Shown here: piece by piece, positions 35,306 through 50,521 of the stretch
How the letters are laid out: each line of letters starts with the position of its first letter
Numbering within the stretch: the stretch's first letter is position 1
Assembly: GCA_050693155.1 (NCBI GenBank)
Contig: JBOGWA010000146.1
Coordinates: 8,975-72,974 of the forward strand
DNA: 64,000 nucleotides
Direction: 5' to 3'
Source: Actinomycetota bacterium
GTDB taxonomy: Bacteria; Actinomycetota; UBA4738; CALAEC01
The notes under the pieces: generated by a model
Told to the model about the DNA's origin: nothing
What the model saw: the letters and a program-made list of their open reading frames with translations, nothing else
The model's database searches: none
Translations under genes and position numbers: made by a program

Positions 35306-35661
35306 CCCGATCCCCCGGGCGCCTCCTCGAATGCGAGCGTGCCGCTTGGAGCTTGCGGCGAGGGGGGCCGTTCTGCTCCGGGCATCGGAACGTAGAGCAG
35401 CCTCACTTCCCGCGGGAGGACGAGCCCGGCCCGCCGTGCCGCCCGGACGATGTTGTCCGGGGAAGAGAGCTCGGCGAGGCGCAGCCGAAGCCGATCGGAG
35501 GCCGAGCTCAGTTGCTCGGCTCGCTCGTTCAGCTTGTTTGCACGCAGCGATGTCTGCGCGACGAGGACCTGGGTGCTTGCGAGCGCAACGATCATCATCC
35601 CGACGACAACGAGGGAGAAGAGCAGAAACGGCACGCCGCGATCTCGCCGACGCTTCGTCAT
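35302..35661 (-). CDS. ftsL: Cell division protein FtsL-like (septum formation initiator)
   Basis: Small bitopic protein with a transmembrane segment (FLLFSLVVVGMMIVALA) followed by a coiled coil; sits between rsmH and ftsI. Confidence 0.75.
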   Translation of the reverse strand: MTKRRRDRGVPFLLFSLVVVGMMIVALASTQVLVAQTSLRANKLNERAEQLSSASDRLRLRLAELSSPDNIVRAARRAGLVLPREVRLLYVPMPGAERPPSPQAPSGTLAFEEAPGGSG

Positions 35662-36545
35662 CAGGCGGCCTCCCTTTGGGCGGCCCGGAGTTTCGCGCTG
35701 CGAGCACGAGGGTTCCGTGAGATCTCGGCGCGACCGGCTCGAAGCGGCTTTTTCGTCAGTACGCGGAGCCCGGGTTCGCCCACCAGGAAGCGCTTCACGA
35801 TCCGATCTTCGAGCGAGTGATAGGCGATCACGACGATCCGCCCGCCGGGGAGGAGCAGTTCGAGGGCCCGTGAAAGGGACGTCGCAAGCTCCTCGAGCTC
35901 TCGATTGACTTCGATCCGAATCGCTTGAAAGCTGCGTCGTGCCGGATGCGGGCCTCCTCGCCGACGCGGCACGGAGGCAGCGACGACCGAGGCGAGCTCG
36001 CGGGTCGTGGACAGTGGTCGGCGGGAACGGGCCCGCAGAATCGCCTTCGCGATCCTTCTCGCATGGCGTTCCTCCCCGAAGTCGCGAAGGACCCGCACGA
36101 GCTCGTCTTCCGAGTATCCATTCACGACGTCCGCGGCCGTGGGCCCGTTCTCCGTCAGGTCCATCCGCATGTCGAGGGGCCCATCGGCACGGAACGAGAA
36201 GCCACGCTCCGGGCGGTCGAGGTGGAGGGAGGAGACTCCGAGGTCGTAGAAGAGACCGTCGACCGCCCGGACCGCAGCCTCTCTTGCGATCCGGCTTACA
36301 TCCGAGAACCGGGCTGCAACCGGCGTGAACCGGTCGCCGTAGTCCGCCAGCTGGGCGCGCGCGAGGGCCAGGCTGTCTGGGTCTCGGTCGACTCCCACGA
36401 CGCGCTCGGTCCCCGCACGCAGGAGCGCACGCGCGTGTCCGCCGGCCCCGACCGTGAAATCGAAAACCGTACGGGTCCCCGCCATCAGTCGGACCACCTC
36501 CCGCACGAGGACCGGTTCGTGCGGGACTCGCGCCACCTCACCCAC
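35661..36545 (-). CDS. rsmH: 16S rRNA (cytosine1402-N4)-methyltransferase RsmH (MraW)
   Basis: …HEPVLVREVV…DFTVGAGGHARALL… SAM-binding motif, …DLGVSSLHLDRPERGFSF…. Confidence 0.95.
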   Translation of the reverse strand: MGEVARVPHEPVLVREVVRLMAGTRTVFDFTVGAGGHARALLRAGTERVVGVDRDPDSLALARAQLADYGDRFTPVAARFSDVSRIAREAAVRAVDGLFYDLGVSSLHLDRPERGFSFRADGPLDMRMDLTENGPTAADVVNGYSEDELVRVLRDFGEERHARRIAKAILRARSRRPLSTTRELASVVAASVPRRRGGPHPARRSFQAIRIEVNRELEELATSLSRALELLLPGGRIVVIAYHSLEDRIVKRFLVGEPGLRVLTKKPLRAGRAEISRNPRARSAKLRAAQREAA

Positions 36546-36562: not shown

Positions 36563-36994
36563 CTAGCCGCGCTCCGGAACGAGCGCGCCGGTCGAATACG
36601 AACCCTCGTGGGTCTGCAGGTACCGATCCCAAGCCTCGAGGCCCCAAATCTCGAGCCGATCGGACACCCCGACGACGGTGACCTCCCTGCCCAGCGTGGC
36701 GTTCTCCCTGAGCTTGCGGGGCAGCACGAGGCGCCCCTGCACATCCAGCTCAGCCCGCTCCGCGTTGCCGAAGAACATCCGGGCGTACGCTCGGTTCCTG
36801 GGATCCGAGATCGCAAGCTCCTGGATCTCGGTGCGCCGCCTGTCCCACTCGACTCGGGGGAACGCGAAGAGGCACCCGTCCTGGCCCAGCGTGAGGAAGA
36901 CGCCCTCGGAGAACGCGTCTCGGAATTTGGCCGGAAGGGAGATGCGTCCCTTCGCGTCCAGTTGATAGCGATGTTCGCCCAGGAGTTCGGCCAC
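36563..36994 (-). CDS. mraZ: Transcriptional regulator MraZ
   Basis: Two DXXXR motifs (…LDAKGRISLPAKFR…; …LDVQGRLVLPRKLRE…). GTG start with GGAGGAGGGG SD. Confidence 0.95.
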   Translation of the reverse strand: MAELLGEHRYQLDAKGRISLPAKFRDAFSEGVFLTLGQDGCLFAFPRVEWDRRRTEIQELAISDPRNRAYARMFFGNAERAELDVQGRLVLPRKLRENATLGREVTVVGVSDRLEIWGLEAWDRYLQTHEGSYSTGALVPERG

Positions 36995-37009
36995 CGGAAC
37001 TCCCCTCCT

Positions 37010-37054
37010 CCACTAGGGGTCCACCTTTATGCCACCTGGACTCCACCAAGTCAA
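37010..37054 (-). promoter_or_regulatory. mra promoter with MraZ-box-like direct repeats: four GTGG(A/C) units at exact 11-bp spacing overlapping -35 TTGACT / -10 CATAAA
   Basis: mraZ-sense strand reads TTGACTtGGTGGAgtccaGGTGGCATAAAGGTGGAcccctaGTGGAGGAGGGGagttccgGTG. The fourth repeat overlaps the SD. Confidence 0.6.
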
Positions 37055-37145
37055 GAGGTAAGGGGCGAATTACAGTGATGTAAGTTGACCTCTGTAAACA
37101 AGTGTTCCTAGAGTGAGGTGACTGTGTTACGTCTTGATGCTCGGG

Positions 37146-37628
37146 TCAAGTAGTGAGGTATGGCTCCCACGAGGGGTCGAGGCGGCCAAGCGAGAGTCGG
37201 AACACGTCCTTGGGAGCGTACGGCTTGCGACGCAGCTTGAGCCCGGCCTCGTGTGCGGGACGGTTCTGCTTCCTGGAGTTGCACCGCCGGCACGCGGCGA
37301 CGACGTTCTCCCAAGCGTGAGTCCCTCCGCGCGAGCGCGGGATGACGTGGTCCACGTTCTCCGCCGGATCACCGCAGTACTGACACATCCAGTCGTCTCG
37401 AGCGAAGATCGCCCGGCGCGTGAGCGCCGCTCGTGCCCGATGGGGGACGCGAACGAAATAGGTCAACCGGACGACGGAGGGCGCCGTGATCGTGAGCCGT
37501 TCCGACCGAAAGACCATCCCGTTGGACTCGACGACGTTGGCCTTCTCTTTGAGGACGAGGACAATCGCCCGTCTCGCTGCGACGACAGCGAGCGGCTCGT
37601 ACGACGCATTCAAGACCAGTGATCGCAT
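37146..37628 (-). CDS. HNH endonuclease family protein
   Basis: HNH core …CQYCGDPAENVDHVIPRSRGGTHAWENVVAACRRCNSRK…. Confidence 0.8.
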   Translation of the reverse strand: MRSLVLNASYEPLAVVAARRAIVLVLKEKANVVESNGMVFRSERLTITAPSVVRLTYFVRVPHRARAALTRRAIFARDDWMCQYCGDPAENVDHVIPRSRGGTHAWENVVAACRRCNSRKQNRPAHEAGLKLRRKPYAPKDVFRLSLGRLDPSWEPYLTT

Positions 37629-37904
37629 CGTTCAACCGTCTTCTTCGAAAATGTGGCGCTCATTATAAGAACGTCGCTCTGATCCGGTACCTTGCCGCTC
37701 CTCGAACCGCCTGACAGAAACCACATGGAGATGCTTGATACTCAAGGATCACAGAAGTGTAATTCATGATCAGAGGAAGGCGGCGTCCCGAAAGTGTCGG
37801 CGCTCCAGGTATGAAGGGCGCCCGAGAGCGATTGGGGCCGCGCGGGGTGTCTCAGGGATGAAGGGCGCCGGCCACGCCGCCTTCCGCATTCCTCTTTTGA
37901 ATCC

Positions 37905-45359: not shown

Positions 45360-46619
45360 TCACTCCGTCATGAGCGCCCCACGGCGCATGCGAAGCCCCG
45401 CAATGCCCACCGTCGTCATCGCGACCGCCGCACCGATCAGCCACGGCTGAACCAAGACGACCCCACCCGCCACCGCGACGAGCCCCGACGCCGCCAGCTC
45501 ACCCGTTTCGTGGGTGAGCGCGAACAGCCCACTCACCTTCCCGGGTTGCTCTGCGACCCGCTGGATGAGGGCATCCCCGGCGGCGACGACGATTGCATAG
45601 CCCAGCCCGAGGACGATGCTGCCGAAGACGGCCGCCGCCATCGTCCCAAGCGCCACGTAGACGAGGAACCCCATCCCTCCCCCACCGATCCCCAGGACGA
45701 TGAAGTTCTCCTCCCGTCCAGCTCCCCGTTTCAGCTTGGAGAGAAAGAACGAGCCGGCCACGGCTCCGACTCCGGACAGGGACCACAGCAGCCCGAGGGT
45801 GTCCTGGCCGCGACCGAGGACATCCTTGACGAACAGCGGCTCCAGCGGGATCAAGAGCCCCAGGAGAAACCACGCCGTGAGCGTGTACCCGAGCAACCTC
45901 CGGAGTTCCGGGACCACCCAGGCTTCCCGCGCCCCCGCCGCCAACTCGGTGATGCTGACTCGCTCCTCCATCGATGTCGCGCGGGGGTCGGGAAGCGTCG
46001 AGGCGATCGCGGCGGCGACCAGCGCCGCGGCTCCGATGAGAAGGTACGGGGCGTCCTGTCCCACGTTCCGCGCGATGAAGCCACCGAGGACGGGACCGAT
46101 GAGCAGCGGGATGTGGCGCACGACGCCAAGCAGTCCGTTGGCCCGAACCAGAAGGTCCTCCGGGATGAGCCGGGGAACGAATGCGCCGCGGGCCGGGACG
46201 AGTACGCCGGCGGCAAGACCCATCAGGGCTGAGGTAACGAGCAGTCCACCAAGCGAGGCGGCGGCGAATGCGATGAGCGCCGCCCCCAGCTTCATCACGT
46301 TCCCAATGACGAGCATCCATTTCGGGCTCCATCGATCCGCCGGGATTCCGAACGGGGCGGCCGTCAGGATGAACGGTACGGACCACGAAGCCACCAGTGC
46401 TGCAAGCTCCCCAGGCGAGGCCCGAAACCCAAACGCCGCCTCCCCGAGGATTGCGACGAAGAACACCTCCCCCGCAAGGAACGAGAAGCCCTCGCCGACG
46501 GCCAGACGATAGAAAGGCGCTCCGAGTCGCGGGCCACGAAGCGCGGCCACGTCGAGCGCCGGCGGGATGTCGTGCGGAAGGGGTTCGGCTCCTTCAAGGG
46601 AGCTGTGTTTTTCGCTCAC
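45360..46619 (-). CDS. MFS transporter (12 transmembrane segments)
   Basis: Hydrophobic profile and MFS loop motifs. Overlaps the dnaE2 stop by 4 bp and ends 3 bp before dinB. Confidence 0.8.
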   Translation of the reverse strand: MSEKHSSLEGAEPLPHDIPPALDVAALRGPRLGAPFYRLAVGEGFSFLAGEVFFVAILGEAAFGFRASPGELAALVASWSVPFILTAAPFGIPADRWSPKWMLVIGNVMKLGAALIAFAAASLGGLLVTSALMGLAAGVLVPARGAFVPRLIPEDLLVRANGLLGVVRHIPLLIGPVLGGFIARNVGQDAPYLLIGAAALVAAAIASTLPDPRATSMEERVSITELAAGAREAWVVPELRRLLGYTLTAWFLLGLLIPLEPLFVKDVLGRGQDTLGLLWSLSGVGAVAGSFFLSKLKRGAGREENFIVLGIGGGGMGFLVYVALGTMAAAVFGSIVLGLGYAIVVAAGDALIQRVAEQPGKVSGLFALTHETGELAASGLVAVAGGVVLVQPWLIGAAVAMTTVGIAGLRMRRGALMTE

Positions 46620-49600
46620 CAGCCGGACGAACCTCCGCTCGCATGCCAGAACTTTCTGGCGGGGACGTGAACATCAACGGGCCCAGGCCTGCCGCCCCGA
46701 AGCGCGTCGGCGAGCCTTCCCTCTCGCCGGGCCGCGTCCAGGACAGGCAGGTCCCAGGCCGCTTCCGCAACGATACTCACCCCCTTCACACCCGTTCGGC
46801 GGAGACGACCTCGGATCGCGAGGAGCGACGAGTGGAACACGACCCGGGCACACCGCTCCTGCGCCCGCTCGAAGACGGTGACGTCGACCGGCCCTGTCGC
46901 GTCGTCGAGGGTGAGGAAGATGATTCGCTGTCCGCTCCTGACCGCGGGGGTCTGCGAGGCGACCTTCACCCCGGCGACCGTCACCCGCTCCCCGCCACGG
47001 TGGCGGGAGAGATCTCGGGACCGAACGGCGCCGAGATCGGCGAGGAGCGGCTCGTAGAACGAGATCAGGTGTCTCGAAGCGTCGACACCGAGCACTTCGA
47101 GCTCTGCTCGAACCCGCTCCCCGTCCGTGTACTCCCGAAGCCCAGGGGGGAGAGGCTCTCCCGCGAGGGAAAGCGCGAGCTGCTCGCCCTCCCACGGCGA
47201 CTCGGCCGTCATCGCGAGGAACAGCCGATCTCGGCGGGTGCCGCTCTTCAGCTCGTCAAACGCCCCCGCGTGGGCGAGCGCCTCGGTCACTGGACGCGAG
47301 ACGCGTGCTCGCCGGATGAAGTCTCCAACGCTCGCGAACGGCCGCTTTCCGAGGATCTCCCCGATCTCATCGTCCGAGATCCCATACACGTCCCGGAGCC
47401 CCAACCGAATCCCCCACCCGCTCTCCCGCCCTGGCGAGCCTGCGGACCACTCCCATCCTGGTGGAGGCGACGTGGCCCTCACCCATCCCGGTGAGCCTGC
47501 GCGGCTGCTCCGCTCAACGTCCTCGACGACGCCGGGAACATCGAATGATCCATCCGAAACCGGCGTCGTCTGCGGGATGTTTCGCTCCGCACCCCGCGCA
47601 GTCTCTCCCGTCCACAGGCGTGATCCGTGCGTCACCAACCACGCTGGATGGGCGGAGGAGGCGAGCGTGGCGTTCCGAGGGGGGGAAGGAGGGGTGGTCT
47701 GCCTCGCCTTCACCAGGTCGGGAGCGGGTTCGACGGTGTAGTCGCGTTGGCTAGCGTTGATGTCGAGCGGGAGGATCGCTATGCCGTGCTCGCGAGCGTC
47801 CTCGAGGATGAGCCGCCGTGGGTACATGCCGGGCTCGTGGGTAAGAACGCCGGCAAGGAAGTGCGCCGGGTAGTGCGACTTCAGCCATGCGGACTGGTAC
47901 GTCGGGACGGCGAACGCGGCGGCGTGTGCCTTGCAGAACCCGAACGAGGCGAACGACGCGAGCTCACGCCACACCTTCTCGGCGTCGTCGGCGCCGAGCC
48001 CTCGGGCAGTGACCCGATACAGAAAATTGCGATGGAGCGAGTCGATCTCACCGTCGTCATCGAGGTGTCGCCGGATCCGATCGGCCTCCGCGAGCGAGCA
48101 CCCGGACGCAGCGAGGACTCGCATGACCTGCTCGTGGTAGACGATCACGCCGTGAGTCTCCTGGAGGATCGGTTTCAGCGACGGGTGAGCGTATCGAGGG
48201 CGCTCGAATCCGTGCCGGCGGTTCAAGAACGGCGCCACCATGTCGGACTTCACCGGGCCCGGACGGAAGAGCGAGATGTCGATGATGAGGTCCTCGAAGC
48301 GATCCGGCTGGAACTTCTGGAGAAGCTCTCGCTGCCCGGGGCTTTCGATCTGAAAGCAGCCGATCGTTCGTGATGCCCGGATCAACTCATAGGTCGCCGG
48401 GTCGTCGTTCGGGATCCGATCGAGATCAGCCCGCTCCCCCGTCGTCCGTTCGATCTCATCGAGCGCATGACGCATAGCCGAGAGCATCCGGACGCCCAGG
48501 ACGTCGAGCTTGAGGAGCCCGAGGACCTCGACGTCGTCCTTGTCGGCCTGCACCATCCGATAGCCGCCGAATGACGGTTCCACCGGCGCCCGGTCGGGAA
48601 GGTCCTTCCCCGAGAGCACGATCCCGGAAGGGTGCAACGCGATGTGCCGGGGAAACCCGTTCAGTCGTTCCGCGACCCGAAAGAGCGTCTCGAGCTGTCC
48701 GGCAGCGAGATTCGAGCCGCGAAGCTCGGGGAGGTCGCGGATGGCCTCCCGGATCTTGCCTGCCCCGATGTGAGGGAATGCCTTCGAGACCCTGTCGACC
48801 TCGCCATCCGGATACCCAAGCGCCTTCCCGCTCTCTCTGATCGCGGACCGGGCTCGGTACGTATCGATCATCGCGACACACGCACATCGTTCCTCGCCAT
48901 AGCGGGCCAGGATCGCGTCGTAGACCTCTTCCCTGCGTGCCGATTCGACGTCGAGGTCGATGTCCGGAAGCTCGTCGCGGAGGGGGTTGAGGAATCGCTC
49001 GAAGAGCAGCCCGTGCCGGATCGGATCGACCTCGGAGATCTCGATCGCGTAACAAACGAGTGACCCCGCAGCCGAGCCGCGGCACGCGCACCGGATGCCC
49101 ATCGCCTTTACCTCGGCGACGATATCGGCGACGGTGAGGAAGTAACCCGAGTAGCCCATTCGCCGGATTTGGTCGAGCTCGTGATCGAGGCGGCCGCGAA
49201 CGTCCGGCGTCAGGTGAACCCCGCGGCGGCGAATCCCTTCGTGACACCGCTCGGCGAGAACCGAGGTCGCACTCCTGCCTCGAGGCGTCGGAAACTCCGG
49301 GAAGTGGACGGACCCGAGACCGAGGTCGACGTCACAGGCCTCGGCGATCCGTAGCGTGTTCCGAAGGAGGTCCGGGCGGTCGGCGAAGAGCATCCGCATC
49401 TCTCTCGGCGACTTGAGGTAGCCCTCGGCGTTCCTTCTGGTGACGTGGTGCGGGGCGACCGGAACGATCTCCCGCATGCACTCGAGCGCGTCGGCGAGGA
49501 AGGCGTCGCCGGACACGAGGTACCGGACCGCGTTCGTCGCGACCGCGGGAAGCCGACCCTCCTCGGCGAGGCGCAGGAGGCGGCGGAGCTCCGATCGACT

Positions 49601-50152
49601 CCCCATCTCGAGGTGGTTCCTGACCTCGATGAAGCAATCGTCGCCGAAGGCCTCTCGAAAGGACCGCGCCGCCTCACGAGCGGCCCCGGCAAGCCCAGCG
49701 ACCGCGAGCATCCCGGGCTCCGATTCAGGTCCGAGCAGGCAGACGAGGCCTTCCGTCCGCCCCCAGATCTCTCCCGGCCAGAGCCATGGATTCCCCCGCT
49801 CTTTGGCATGCGCAGCCGTGATCAGCCGGCACAGATTCGCGTACCCCAGATCGTCTTTCGCCACGACCACGATCCAGTTCGTTGAGGACCGACCGGCGCC
49901 GGAGGAGCGACGTCGGCACGGGCGGCCATCGCCGGCAAAGGACGAGACGGTGAGTTGGGCGCCGAGGATGGGTTTGACGCCGAGGTCGCGGCAGGCGGTG
50001 ACGAAGCGGGCGACGCCGGTGAGCGAGTCGCTGTCGGTGAGCGCAACCGCCGGCATTCCAAGCTCGGCCGCCCGAACCGCGAGGGATTCGGGGGAGAACG
50101 CCCCATCCTTCAGGGAGAAGTACGACCGGCAGTGGAGGTGAACGAAGGCCAC
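46616..50152 (-). CDS. dnaE2: Error-prone DNA polymerase DnaE2 (ImuC-type PolIII alpha paralog)
   Basis: 1178 aa. N-terminus MAFVHLHCRSYFSLKDGAFSPESL resembles the DnaE2 type (…HAHSAYSFLDGASTPEEL) more than DnaE1. Second PolIII-alpha copy in the window, SOS box upstream, dinB downstream. Confidence 0.85.
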   Translation of the reverse strand: MAFVHLHCRSYFSLKDGAFSPESLAVRAAELGMPAVALTDSDSLTGVARFVTACRDLGVKPILGAQLTVSSFAGDGRPCRRRSSGAGRSSTNWIVVVAKDDLGYANLCRLITAAHAKERGNPWLWPGEIWGRTEGLVCLLGPESEPGMLAVAGLAGAAREAARSFREAFGDDCFIEVRNHLEMGSRSELRRLLRLAEEGRLPAVATNAVRYLVSGDAFLADALECMREIVPVAPHHVTRRNAEGYLKSPREMRMLFADRPDLLRNTLRIAEACDVDLGLGSVHFPEFPTPRGRSATSVLAERCHEGIRRRGVHLTPDVRGRLDHELDQIRRMGYSGYFLTVADIVAEVKAMGIRCACRGSAAGSLVCYAIEISEVDPIRHGLLFERFLNPLRDELPDIDLDVESARREEVYDAILARYGEERCACVAMIDTYRARSAIRESGKALGYPDGEVDRVSKAFPHIGAGKIREAIRDLPELRGSNLAAGQLETLFRVAERLNGFPRHIALHPSGIVLSGKDLPDRAPVEPSFGGYRMVQADKDDVEVLGLLKLDVLGVRMLSAMRHALDEIERTTGERADLDRIPNDDPATYELIRASRTIGCFQIESPGQRELLQKFQPDRFEDLIIDISLFRPGPVKSDMVAPFLNRRHGFERPRYAHPSLKPILQETHGVIVYHEQVMRVLAASGCSLAEADRIRRHLDDDGEIDSLHRNFLYRVTARGLGADDAEKVWRELASFASFGFCKAHAAAFAVPTYQSAWLKSHYPAHFLAGVLTHEPGMYPRRLILEDAREHGIAILPLDINASQRDYTVEPAPDLVKARQTTPPSPPRNATLASSAHPAWLVTHGSRLWTGETARGAERNIPQTTPVSDGSFDVPGVVEDVERSSRAGSPGWVRATSPPPGWEWSAGSPGRESGWGIRLGLRDVYGISDDEIGEILGKRPFASVGDFIRRARVSRPVTEALAHAGAFDELKSGTRRDRLFLAMTAESPWEGEQLALSLAGEPLPPGLREYTDGERVRAELEVLGVDASRHLISFYEPLLADLGAVRSRDLSRHRGGERVTVAGVKVASQTPAVRSGQRIIFLTLDDATGPVDVTVFERAQERCARVVFHSSLLAIRGRLRRTGVKGVSIVAEAAWDLPVLDAARREGRLADALRGGRPGPVDVHVPARKFWHASGGSSGW

Positions 50153-50164
50153 ACCTGCCCGCCC

Positions 50165-50485
50165 TTAGTCCCAGAGCCGCTCGAGATGCCAGCGGCCGGC
50201 CGAGCGGTCCCGGTAGAGGTCACAGACCACCGTCTGACTGGGGGGTCCGCTCGCTGTACGTCCCTCGGCATTGGCGATTTTGGACGAGCTACCCCCCCGG
50301 ACCCCCCGGGCCCTCACCTCGACCCGCCAGTACTCGCGGTCGCGGCCGTCCTCCCACCAACGTCCCTCGATCCGCCAGCGGCCGATCACGTCGACGACGT
50401 GGTACGAACGGCCGTTCCACGAGAAGGCCGACGGCAGCCCGCCATCGAGGTCGACCTCGACCTGCTGGTCGTACCGCTTCGCCAC
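50165..50485 (-). CDS. Hypothetical small Trp/Arg-rich protein (~106 aa) co-transcribed with dnaE2
   Basis: GTG start with SD AAGGGAGG located 20 nt downstream of the LexA box. Sequence VAKRYDQQVEVDLDGGLPSAFSWNGRSYHVVDVIGRWRIEGRWWEDGRDREYWRVEVRA…VVCDLYRDRSAGRWHLERLWD. Ends 12 bp before the dnaE2 start. The ORF-track N-terminal extension (to 50656) would contain the SOS box, so it is rejected. Confidence 0.6.
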   Translation of the reverse strand: MAKRYDQQVEVDLDGGLPSAFSWNGRSYHVVDVIGRWRIEGRWWEDGRDREYWRVEVRARGVRGGSSSKIANAEGRTASGPPSQTVVCDLYRDRSAGRWHLERLWD

Positions 50486-50505
50486 CGGGCCTCCCTTCAA
50501 GGGAA

Positions 50506-50521
50506 TCGAACATATGTTCGA
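50506..50521. promoter_or_regulatory. LexA (SOS/Cheo) box TCGAACATATGTTCGA
   Basis: Perfect 16-bp palindrome matching the actinobacterial/Gram-positive LexA consensus TCGAAC-N4-GTTCGA, directly upstream of the small ORF-dnaE2-MFS-dinB operon. Confidence 0.8.

Follow-up and report, generated by a model that had tools for sequence, protein, structure and literature searches.

A candidate MraZ operator of four phased GTGG boxes upstream of mraZ in an uncultured Actinomycetota lineage

Few operator designs are as widely conserved in bacteria as MraZ boxes. In the 64-kb stretch of DNA analysed here (the window), four GTGG units stand immediately upstream of mraZ, and the locus raises the question of whether these units form an operator for the product of the gene that follows them. 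The boxes have the same sequence as experimentally proven MraZ boxes; they are repeated and deeply conserved, and the residues with which MraZ contacts DNA are kept. On the strength of these sequence comparisons, we consider it very probable that the four units are the MraZ-binding repeats of the mraZ/dcw promoter and that they serve negative autoregulation. Operators of this type are already well known, and the locus in the window is a further instance; its 11-bp phasing, with the candidate −10 element between boxes, is one modest architectural twist, shared across the lineage.

The repeat array and the candidate promoter

The gene downstream of the array, on the minus strand at 36563–36994, encodes a 143-aa protein from a GTG start codon. 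Its designation as mraZ in the initial annotation is borne out by a Pfam match (MraZ, PF02381, E = 1.2e-35) and by gene order. Specifically, it is the first gene of a dcw cluster and is followed by rsmH/mraW (35661–36545), an ftsL-like gene, a PBP gene, and murE, in an order identical to that of the closest contig. An in-frame TAG at 37013–37015 fixes the mraZ start at 36994 and rules out the GTG of the fourth box (box 4) as an upstream start in the window. In many relatives (L001, L014–L046), the GTG of box 4 is in frame, 21 nt upstream of the mraZ start; several database MraZ entries (P0003–P0009) have lengths of 149–153 aa, compared with 142–143 aa, and probably carry over-extended N-termini that begin at this GTG. 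The intergenic region upstream of mraZ is 151 bp long and is bounded by an HNH-endonuclease gene (37146–37628, minus strand, 160 aa), which lies directly upstream on the same strand and ends at 37146. An enoyl-CoA hydratase gene precedes the HNH gene, an order kept in the closest relatives; in several distant relatives, the C-terminal W-E-x-Y-L motif of the HNH protein can be read ahead of mraZ, and cultured Actinomycetes have different genes upstream of mraZ, e.g., DUF3040.

Re-reading of the minus (sense) strand upstream of the mraZ GTG revealed four GTGG units, starting at 37046, 37035, 37024, and 37013, with a spacing of exactly 11-11-11 bp, as the initial annotation had described. In the sense direction, TTGACT (37054–37049) is followed by tg, box 1 (GTGG, 37046–37043), agtccag, box 2 (GTGG, 37035–37032), CATAAA (37031–37026), g, box 3 (GTGG, 37024–37021), accccta, box 4 (GTGG, 37013–37010), AGGAGGGGAG, ttccg, and the GTG start codon (36994). 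The third spacer had been given as cccta, whereas the actual sequence is GGTGGA-CCCCTA-GTGGA; the 11-bp spacing is unaffected. The array is located 16–52 nt upstream of the mraZ start. In extended form, box 1 reads GTGGAG (37041–37046) and matches the B. subtilis box GTGG[A/T]G, and box 4 reads GTGGAGGA (37006–37013).

The array stands out from the sequence around it. The pattern GTGG-N7-GTGG-N7-GTGG-N7-GTGG has one match in the 64-kb window and was found in 0 of 100 dinucleotide-preserving shuffles. When steps of either 10 or 11 bp are allowed, the array is the sole chain of at least three boxes on either strand, among 591 occurrences of GTGG in the window; 200 block shuffles yielded a mean of 0.115 chains of at least three boxes and 0 chains of at least four. 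MraZ boxes are recognised as at least three direct repeats in the same orientation with a GTG(G/T) or TGGG core, and the window has four GTGG units on the sense strand. The canonical MraZ-box period is 10 bp (a four-base core and a 6-nt spacer), compared with 11-11-11 bp in the window, which is still approximately one helical turn; we therefore read the 11-bp period as an architectural difference that does not exclude membership among the MraZ-binding repeats. A further GGTGGC coincides with the start codon and is 19 bp away from box 4; it was considered as a fifth box and rejected: its distance varies between ~18 and 24 bp among relatives, and the start codon of L051 is TTG. We treat this GGTGGC as a coincidence of the GTG start and an Ala codon.

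The array overlaps a candidate σ70/SigA-type promoter. Promoters of this type combine a TTGACA-like −35 element with a TATAAT-like −10 element, which has A in its second and T in its sixth position, across 16–18 bp. In the window, TTGACT (37049–37054, minus strand) is the candidate −35 element of the mraZ/dcw promoter; CATAAA (37026–37031, minus strand) is the candidate −10 element, positioned 17 bp after the −35 element; and CATAAA is preceded by TGG from box 2, which could serve as an extended −10 "TGn". This TTGACT/CATAAA pair had been proposed in the initial annotation, and the pair is conserved. CATAAA ends in A where a −10 element usually has T, in keeping with the absence of a promoter-scan call there; the −10 assignment is therefore tentative, and the register between promoter and boxes is likewise not certain. 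Homology with other Actinomycetota promoters strengthens the assignment, from which we infer a transcription start near 37019–37022. The promoter scan made a single intergenic match, TTGACC-18-TAGAGT at 37085–37114 on the plus strand, directed away from mraZ and antisense into the HNH gene; its −35 element is not kept in L049 (TTAACG), and we set the match aside as probably due to chance.

The repeats had been described as lying inside the −35/−10 spacer and running onto the ribosome-binding site. Boxes 1 and 2 do lie between the two elements, but box 3 is located just after the candidate −10 element, at the expected transcription start or immediately before it, and box 4 is located in the leader. 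Box 4 indeed overlaps the Shine-Dalgarno region, read from the sequence as GGAGGGGAG (37000–37008, minus strand), 5–9 nt before the GTG start. In relatives, a second GGGGAGGA is present near the start codon.

If the promoter is assigned correctly, boxes 3 and 4 and the Shine-Dalgarno sequence would be part of the transcript, and the conserved sequence might then act in RNA, as a structured leader controlling mraZ translation. Such a role is vanishingly unlikely: boxes 1 and 2 are upstream of the expected start, the conserved elements are direct repeats and not paired arms, a search for Rfam families returned none at E ≤ 1, and the leader fold has a z-score of −0.6, with 48 of 200 shuffles folding as well.

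Conservation within the lineage and in other lineages

The initial annotation had pointed to the upstream regions of related mraZ genes, where a lack of the repeats would speak against an MraZ operator. We aligned these regions and found the boxes in all ~77 loci of the lineage: 47 loci from a scan of the genome collection (all uncultured Actinomycetota MAGs, with 51–77% MraZ identity), three closer contigs (L049–L051, with 92–93% MraZ identity), and 27 metagenome loci. The arrangement TTGAC-N2-4-GTGGAG-N5-GTGG-CATAAA-N-box3-N6/7-GTGGAGGA is kept in all of them, with box 3 degenerate in part.

Per-column information, calculated from 50 aligned lineage sequences, separates the boxes from the sequence between them. 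TTGAC is invariant (2.0 bits per position), as is box 2 (2.0 bits per position; 50/50 sequences); box 1 (GTGGAG) and box 4 (GTGGAGGA) each have 1.9–2.0 bits per position; CATAAA has 1.3–1.9 bits per position; and the first spacer has 0.1–1.1 bits per position. Box 3 is the weakest box, with 1.8, 0.9, 2.0, and 1.6 bits at G, T, G, and G, respectively; it reads GTGG in 29 of 48 sequences and GGGG, GGGA, AGGG, or GAGG in the others (~40% degenerate). Boxes 1, 2, and 4 are thus invariant among relatives while the intervening spacers vary, both in the 50 aligned sequences and, with box 3 again weaker, in the 27 metagenome loci. The difference between boxes at 1.9–2.0 bits and spacers at 0.1–1.1 bits is the footprint expected of a protein-binding site.

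The spacing of the boxes is also conserved, with one variation. Every locus of the lineage has an 11-bp step from box 1 to box 2, and the −35 element is separated from box 1 by 2–3 nt in the lineage and by 2 nt in the window. Throughout the array, L049–L051 match the window base for base, down to the additional base in the third spacer, and share its 11-11-11 spacing; all 47 genome loci have 11-11-10, as do 16 of the 27 metagenome loci, the remainder being partial, with box 3 degenerate. The exact 11-bp phasing noted at the outset therefore holds for the window and its closest relatives, and the wider lineage has 11-11-10.

Conservation of this kind could in principle reflect core signals alone, i.e., a −35, an extended −10, a −10, and a Shine-Dalgarno element that happen to contain GTGG, in the absence of any operator. 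As this explanation would have it, box 2 can double as the TGn of an extended −10, and a GGAGG near the start codon overlaps box 4. Box 1, however, invariably reads GTGGAG although it stands mid-spacer, where no particular bases are required by RNA polymerase, and independent signals would not be expected to yield four identical tetramers in strict phase. Moreover, other lineages, which have 10-bp spacing, carry fourth boxes reading GTGGAGGA at 34–115 nt from the start codon; box 4 is thus an operator box and not merely a ribosome-binding site. We give core signals without an operator very little credence.

The comparison with other lineages rests on a metagenome scan built on Actinomycetota sequences only and on comparator homologue searches, from which only returned database proteins were used. 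Among 53 metagenome loci of other lineages (39–46% identity), 28 have four boxes with 10-10-10 spacing and 19 have three boxes with 10-10 spacing. Spacing is 10 bp in all 57 loci from other lineages examined, in E. coli, and in each MraZ operator characterised so far, and the 11-bp forms are found in the lineage of the window. In the literature, three boxes are usual and four are regarded as a Mycoplasma trait; the 28 four-box loci led us to discard box number as a special feature of the window. In 29 loci from other lineages, box 1 directly follows a TTGnnn hexamer.

The 11-bp period could also suggest a different regulator, e.g., an OmpR-family response regulator such as MtrA, which binds 11-bp direct repeats. 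MtrA binds the mraZ promoter in Dietzia, and its consensus, two 6-nt direct repeats with 5 nt between them, has the same period as the array. The period alone fits, however: the site (G/T)T(G/A)ACC-N5-GT(G/T)AC does not occur at the array, where GTGG is followed by A, C, or G, so that the fourth base is an invariant G and positions 5–6 are not CC. The window has four repeats, not two, and GTGG boxes that are proven MraZ sites precede mraZ across phyla at a 10-bp period. Binding of the repeats by MtrA or another such regulator is accordingly highly improbable, and the repeats are best explained as MraZ boxes.

Predicted regulation by MraZ and candidate regulatory sites nearby

The MraZ protein of the window gives an ungapped alignment with the MraZ structures of M. 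genitalium and M. pneumoniae (PDB chains). The alignment places K15, R17, and R88 at the three base-contact positions and reveals both DXXXR motifs (D13-AKG-R17 and D84-VQG-R88), including the supporting aspartates D13 and D84. By analogy, MraZ, encoded immediately downstream of the array, would bind as an oligomer, with one subunit per box, and would reach into one major groove after the next along a single face of the DNA with K15, R17, and R88. Boxes 1 and 2 would fill the −35/−10 spacer, box 3 would be positioned at the expected start, and box 4 would be positioned in the short leader. An MraZ oligomer bound in this manner would cover positions from ~−27 to +11 and would exclude RNA polymerase; with a start near 37019–37022, promoter occlusion is the most likely mechanism. 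The predicted outcome is negative autoregulation of mraZ together with the downstream division and cell-wall genes.

MraZ might instead bind the array as an activator, or as a dual regulator whose effect depends on its concentration. Activation by over-expressed MraZ is reported from M. gallisepticum, so repression is not guaranteed in the lineage of the window; furthermore, the weakness of box 3 in many relatives would allow the array to be partly occupied. Against this, the boxes overlap the core promoter from ~−27 to +11, which is a repressor position, and MraZ repression has been shown in E. coli, B. subtilis, and M. genitalium, with comparable layouts. We assign activation or dual regulation a small probability and retain autorepression by MraZ as the preferred reading.

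The intergenic region contains a second element. A perfect inverted repeat, TTACA-TCAC-TGTAA, is located at 37070–37083, 15 nt upstream of the −35 element, with a second site at 37749–37762. The pattern TTACA-N4-TGTAA, with at most one mismatch, has 3 matches in the window, compared with 0.03 expected. The TTACA and TGTAA arms are invariant in relatives that carry the repeat (L003–L005, L049–L051), with a different centre in L051. Upstream of its HNH gene, the window also carries the related site GAATTACA-N4-TGTGA, and a form similar to it is present ~700–900 nt upstream of mraZ in L001, L005, L006, and L047. The TTACA-N4-TGTAA repeat is probably the operator of another regulator.

In a sister clade (L014, L017–L046, and metagenome loci), a different element is found: a perfect Cheo/LexA-type box, CGAACA(A/T/G)CAGTTCG, 34–35 nt upstream of box 1. 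Of the 75 loci with 11-bp spacing, 34 have the box at this fixed distance, compared with 0 of the 33 loci with 10-bp spacing; in the L020 promoter it reads CGAACAnCAGTTCG. The window has no LexA-type box at the equivalent position, ~37065–37085. In the loci inspected (e.g., L020), the upstream gene is a same-strand HNH gene, and a divergent promoter therefore does not explain the box. In a limited literature search, no mraZ promoter with a LexA box came to light; in the sister clade, such a box would tie the dcw promoter to the SOS response. Elsewhere in the window, a perfect SOS box, CGAACATATGTTCG, is located at 50507–50520, immediately ahead of a DUF6504 ORF (50165–50494) and a gene for a 1178-aa DnaE-type polymerase (46616–50152), both on the minus strand. 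This locus looks like a LexA-controlled mutagenesis cassette, and it suggests that LexA of the organism recognises the canonical Gram-positive motif.

Comparison with known MraZ operators

The initial annotation had stated that MraZ binds direct GTG-containing repeats in its own promoter in other bacteria, and the boxes of B. subtilis, E. coli, and M. genitalium agree with that statement. The proposal of a candidate MraZ operator in the window is supported by conservation, by the match to these proven boxes, by the contact residues, and by the overlap with the candidate promoter.

In M. genitalium, four AAAGTG(T/G) boxes (AAAGTGT-N3 ×4) with a 10-bp period are located directly upstream of mraZ, and the transcription start lies inside a box (PMC12957436). 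In the cryo-EM structures (9QLR, 9QLG, and 9SX6), one subunit of the opened MraZ ring occupies each box, and Lys13, Arg15, and Arg86 contact TG(T/G) in the major groove (PMC12957436). The window shares with M. genitalium four direct repeats approximately one helical turn apart, a GTG(T/G) core, and the Lys/Arg/Arg triad. The period (10 bp in M. genitalium, 11 bp in the window), the G+C content, and the promoter layout differ, as does the A-rich flank: AAA precedes every M. genitalium box, whereas in the window it precedes box 3 alone. EMSA in the same study indicate that MraZ tolerates altered box spacing (PMC12957436), and an 11-bp period is therefore compatible with binding.

In B. subtilis, three GTGG[A/T]G boxes with 4-nt spacers in the −35/−10 region are needed for MraZ repression of the mra operon (bioRxiv 10.1101/2022.02.09.479790). 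The window shares this hexamer, with boxes 1 and 4 reading GTGGAG, and shares the placement of repeats in the −35/−10 region; the B. subtilis promoter has three boxes at a 10-bp period, whereas the window has four at 11 bp. In E. coli Pmra, read directly from NC_000913.3 (L048), the boxes are GTGGGaaattGTGGGgcaaaGTGGG (GTGGG-N5 ×3), downstream of TTGACA-18-TAAACT. These are likewise GTGG-type MraZ boxes, and E. coli MraZ is annotated as a repressor; in contrast to the window, there are three boxes, at a 10-bp period, and all three are located downstream of the −10 element.

DNA has a helical repeat of 10.5 bp, and steps of 10 bp and 11 bp therefore wind successive boxes around the helix in opposite directions. 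A shift from 10 to 11 bp that is not neutral, but reflects a co-evolved change in the seating of the MraZ oligomer on DNA, is unlikely in our estimation; if such co-evolution took place, the superhelical path or the subunit angle of MraZ would differ from that in the M. genitalium complex. The N-terminus of the window MraZ, which is two residues longer (MAELLG versus MFLG), might be part of it. In either case, the lineage constitutes a natural experiment, in which ~77 loci were re-spaced from 10 to 11 bp and had the candidate −10 element moved between boxes while the boxes and the DNA-contact residues were kept. Set against the MraZ-DNA cryo-EM structures, this spacing could reveal the geometric tolerance of the open-ring oligomer.

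The locus extends MraZ boxes to an uncultured lineage of Actinomycetota and allows the dcw promoter and operator of that lineage to be annotated with confidence. In the common actinobacterial layout, represented by Mycobacterium koreense, Rhodococcus, Micromonospora, Cryptosporangium, and most of the 53 metagenome loci, boxes 1 and 2 are located in the spacer behind a TTGnnn −35 element. Specifically, the −35 element abuts box 1 and a TAnnGT −10 element overlaps box 3, as in TTGACG-GTGGggggaaGTGGag-TACAGTGG. The window shares with this layout the filling of the −35/−10 spacer by boxes 1 and 2, the position of box 3 at the −10/start, and a fourth box that often reads GTGGAGGA. It differs in having 2 nt between the −35 element and box 1, CATAAA between boxes 2 and 3, a spacing of 11-11-11 (11-11-10 in the wider lineage) in place of 10-10(-10), and a much shorter leader.
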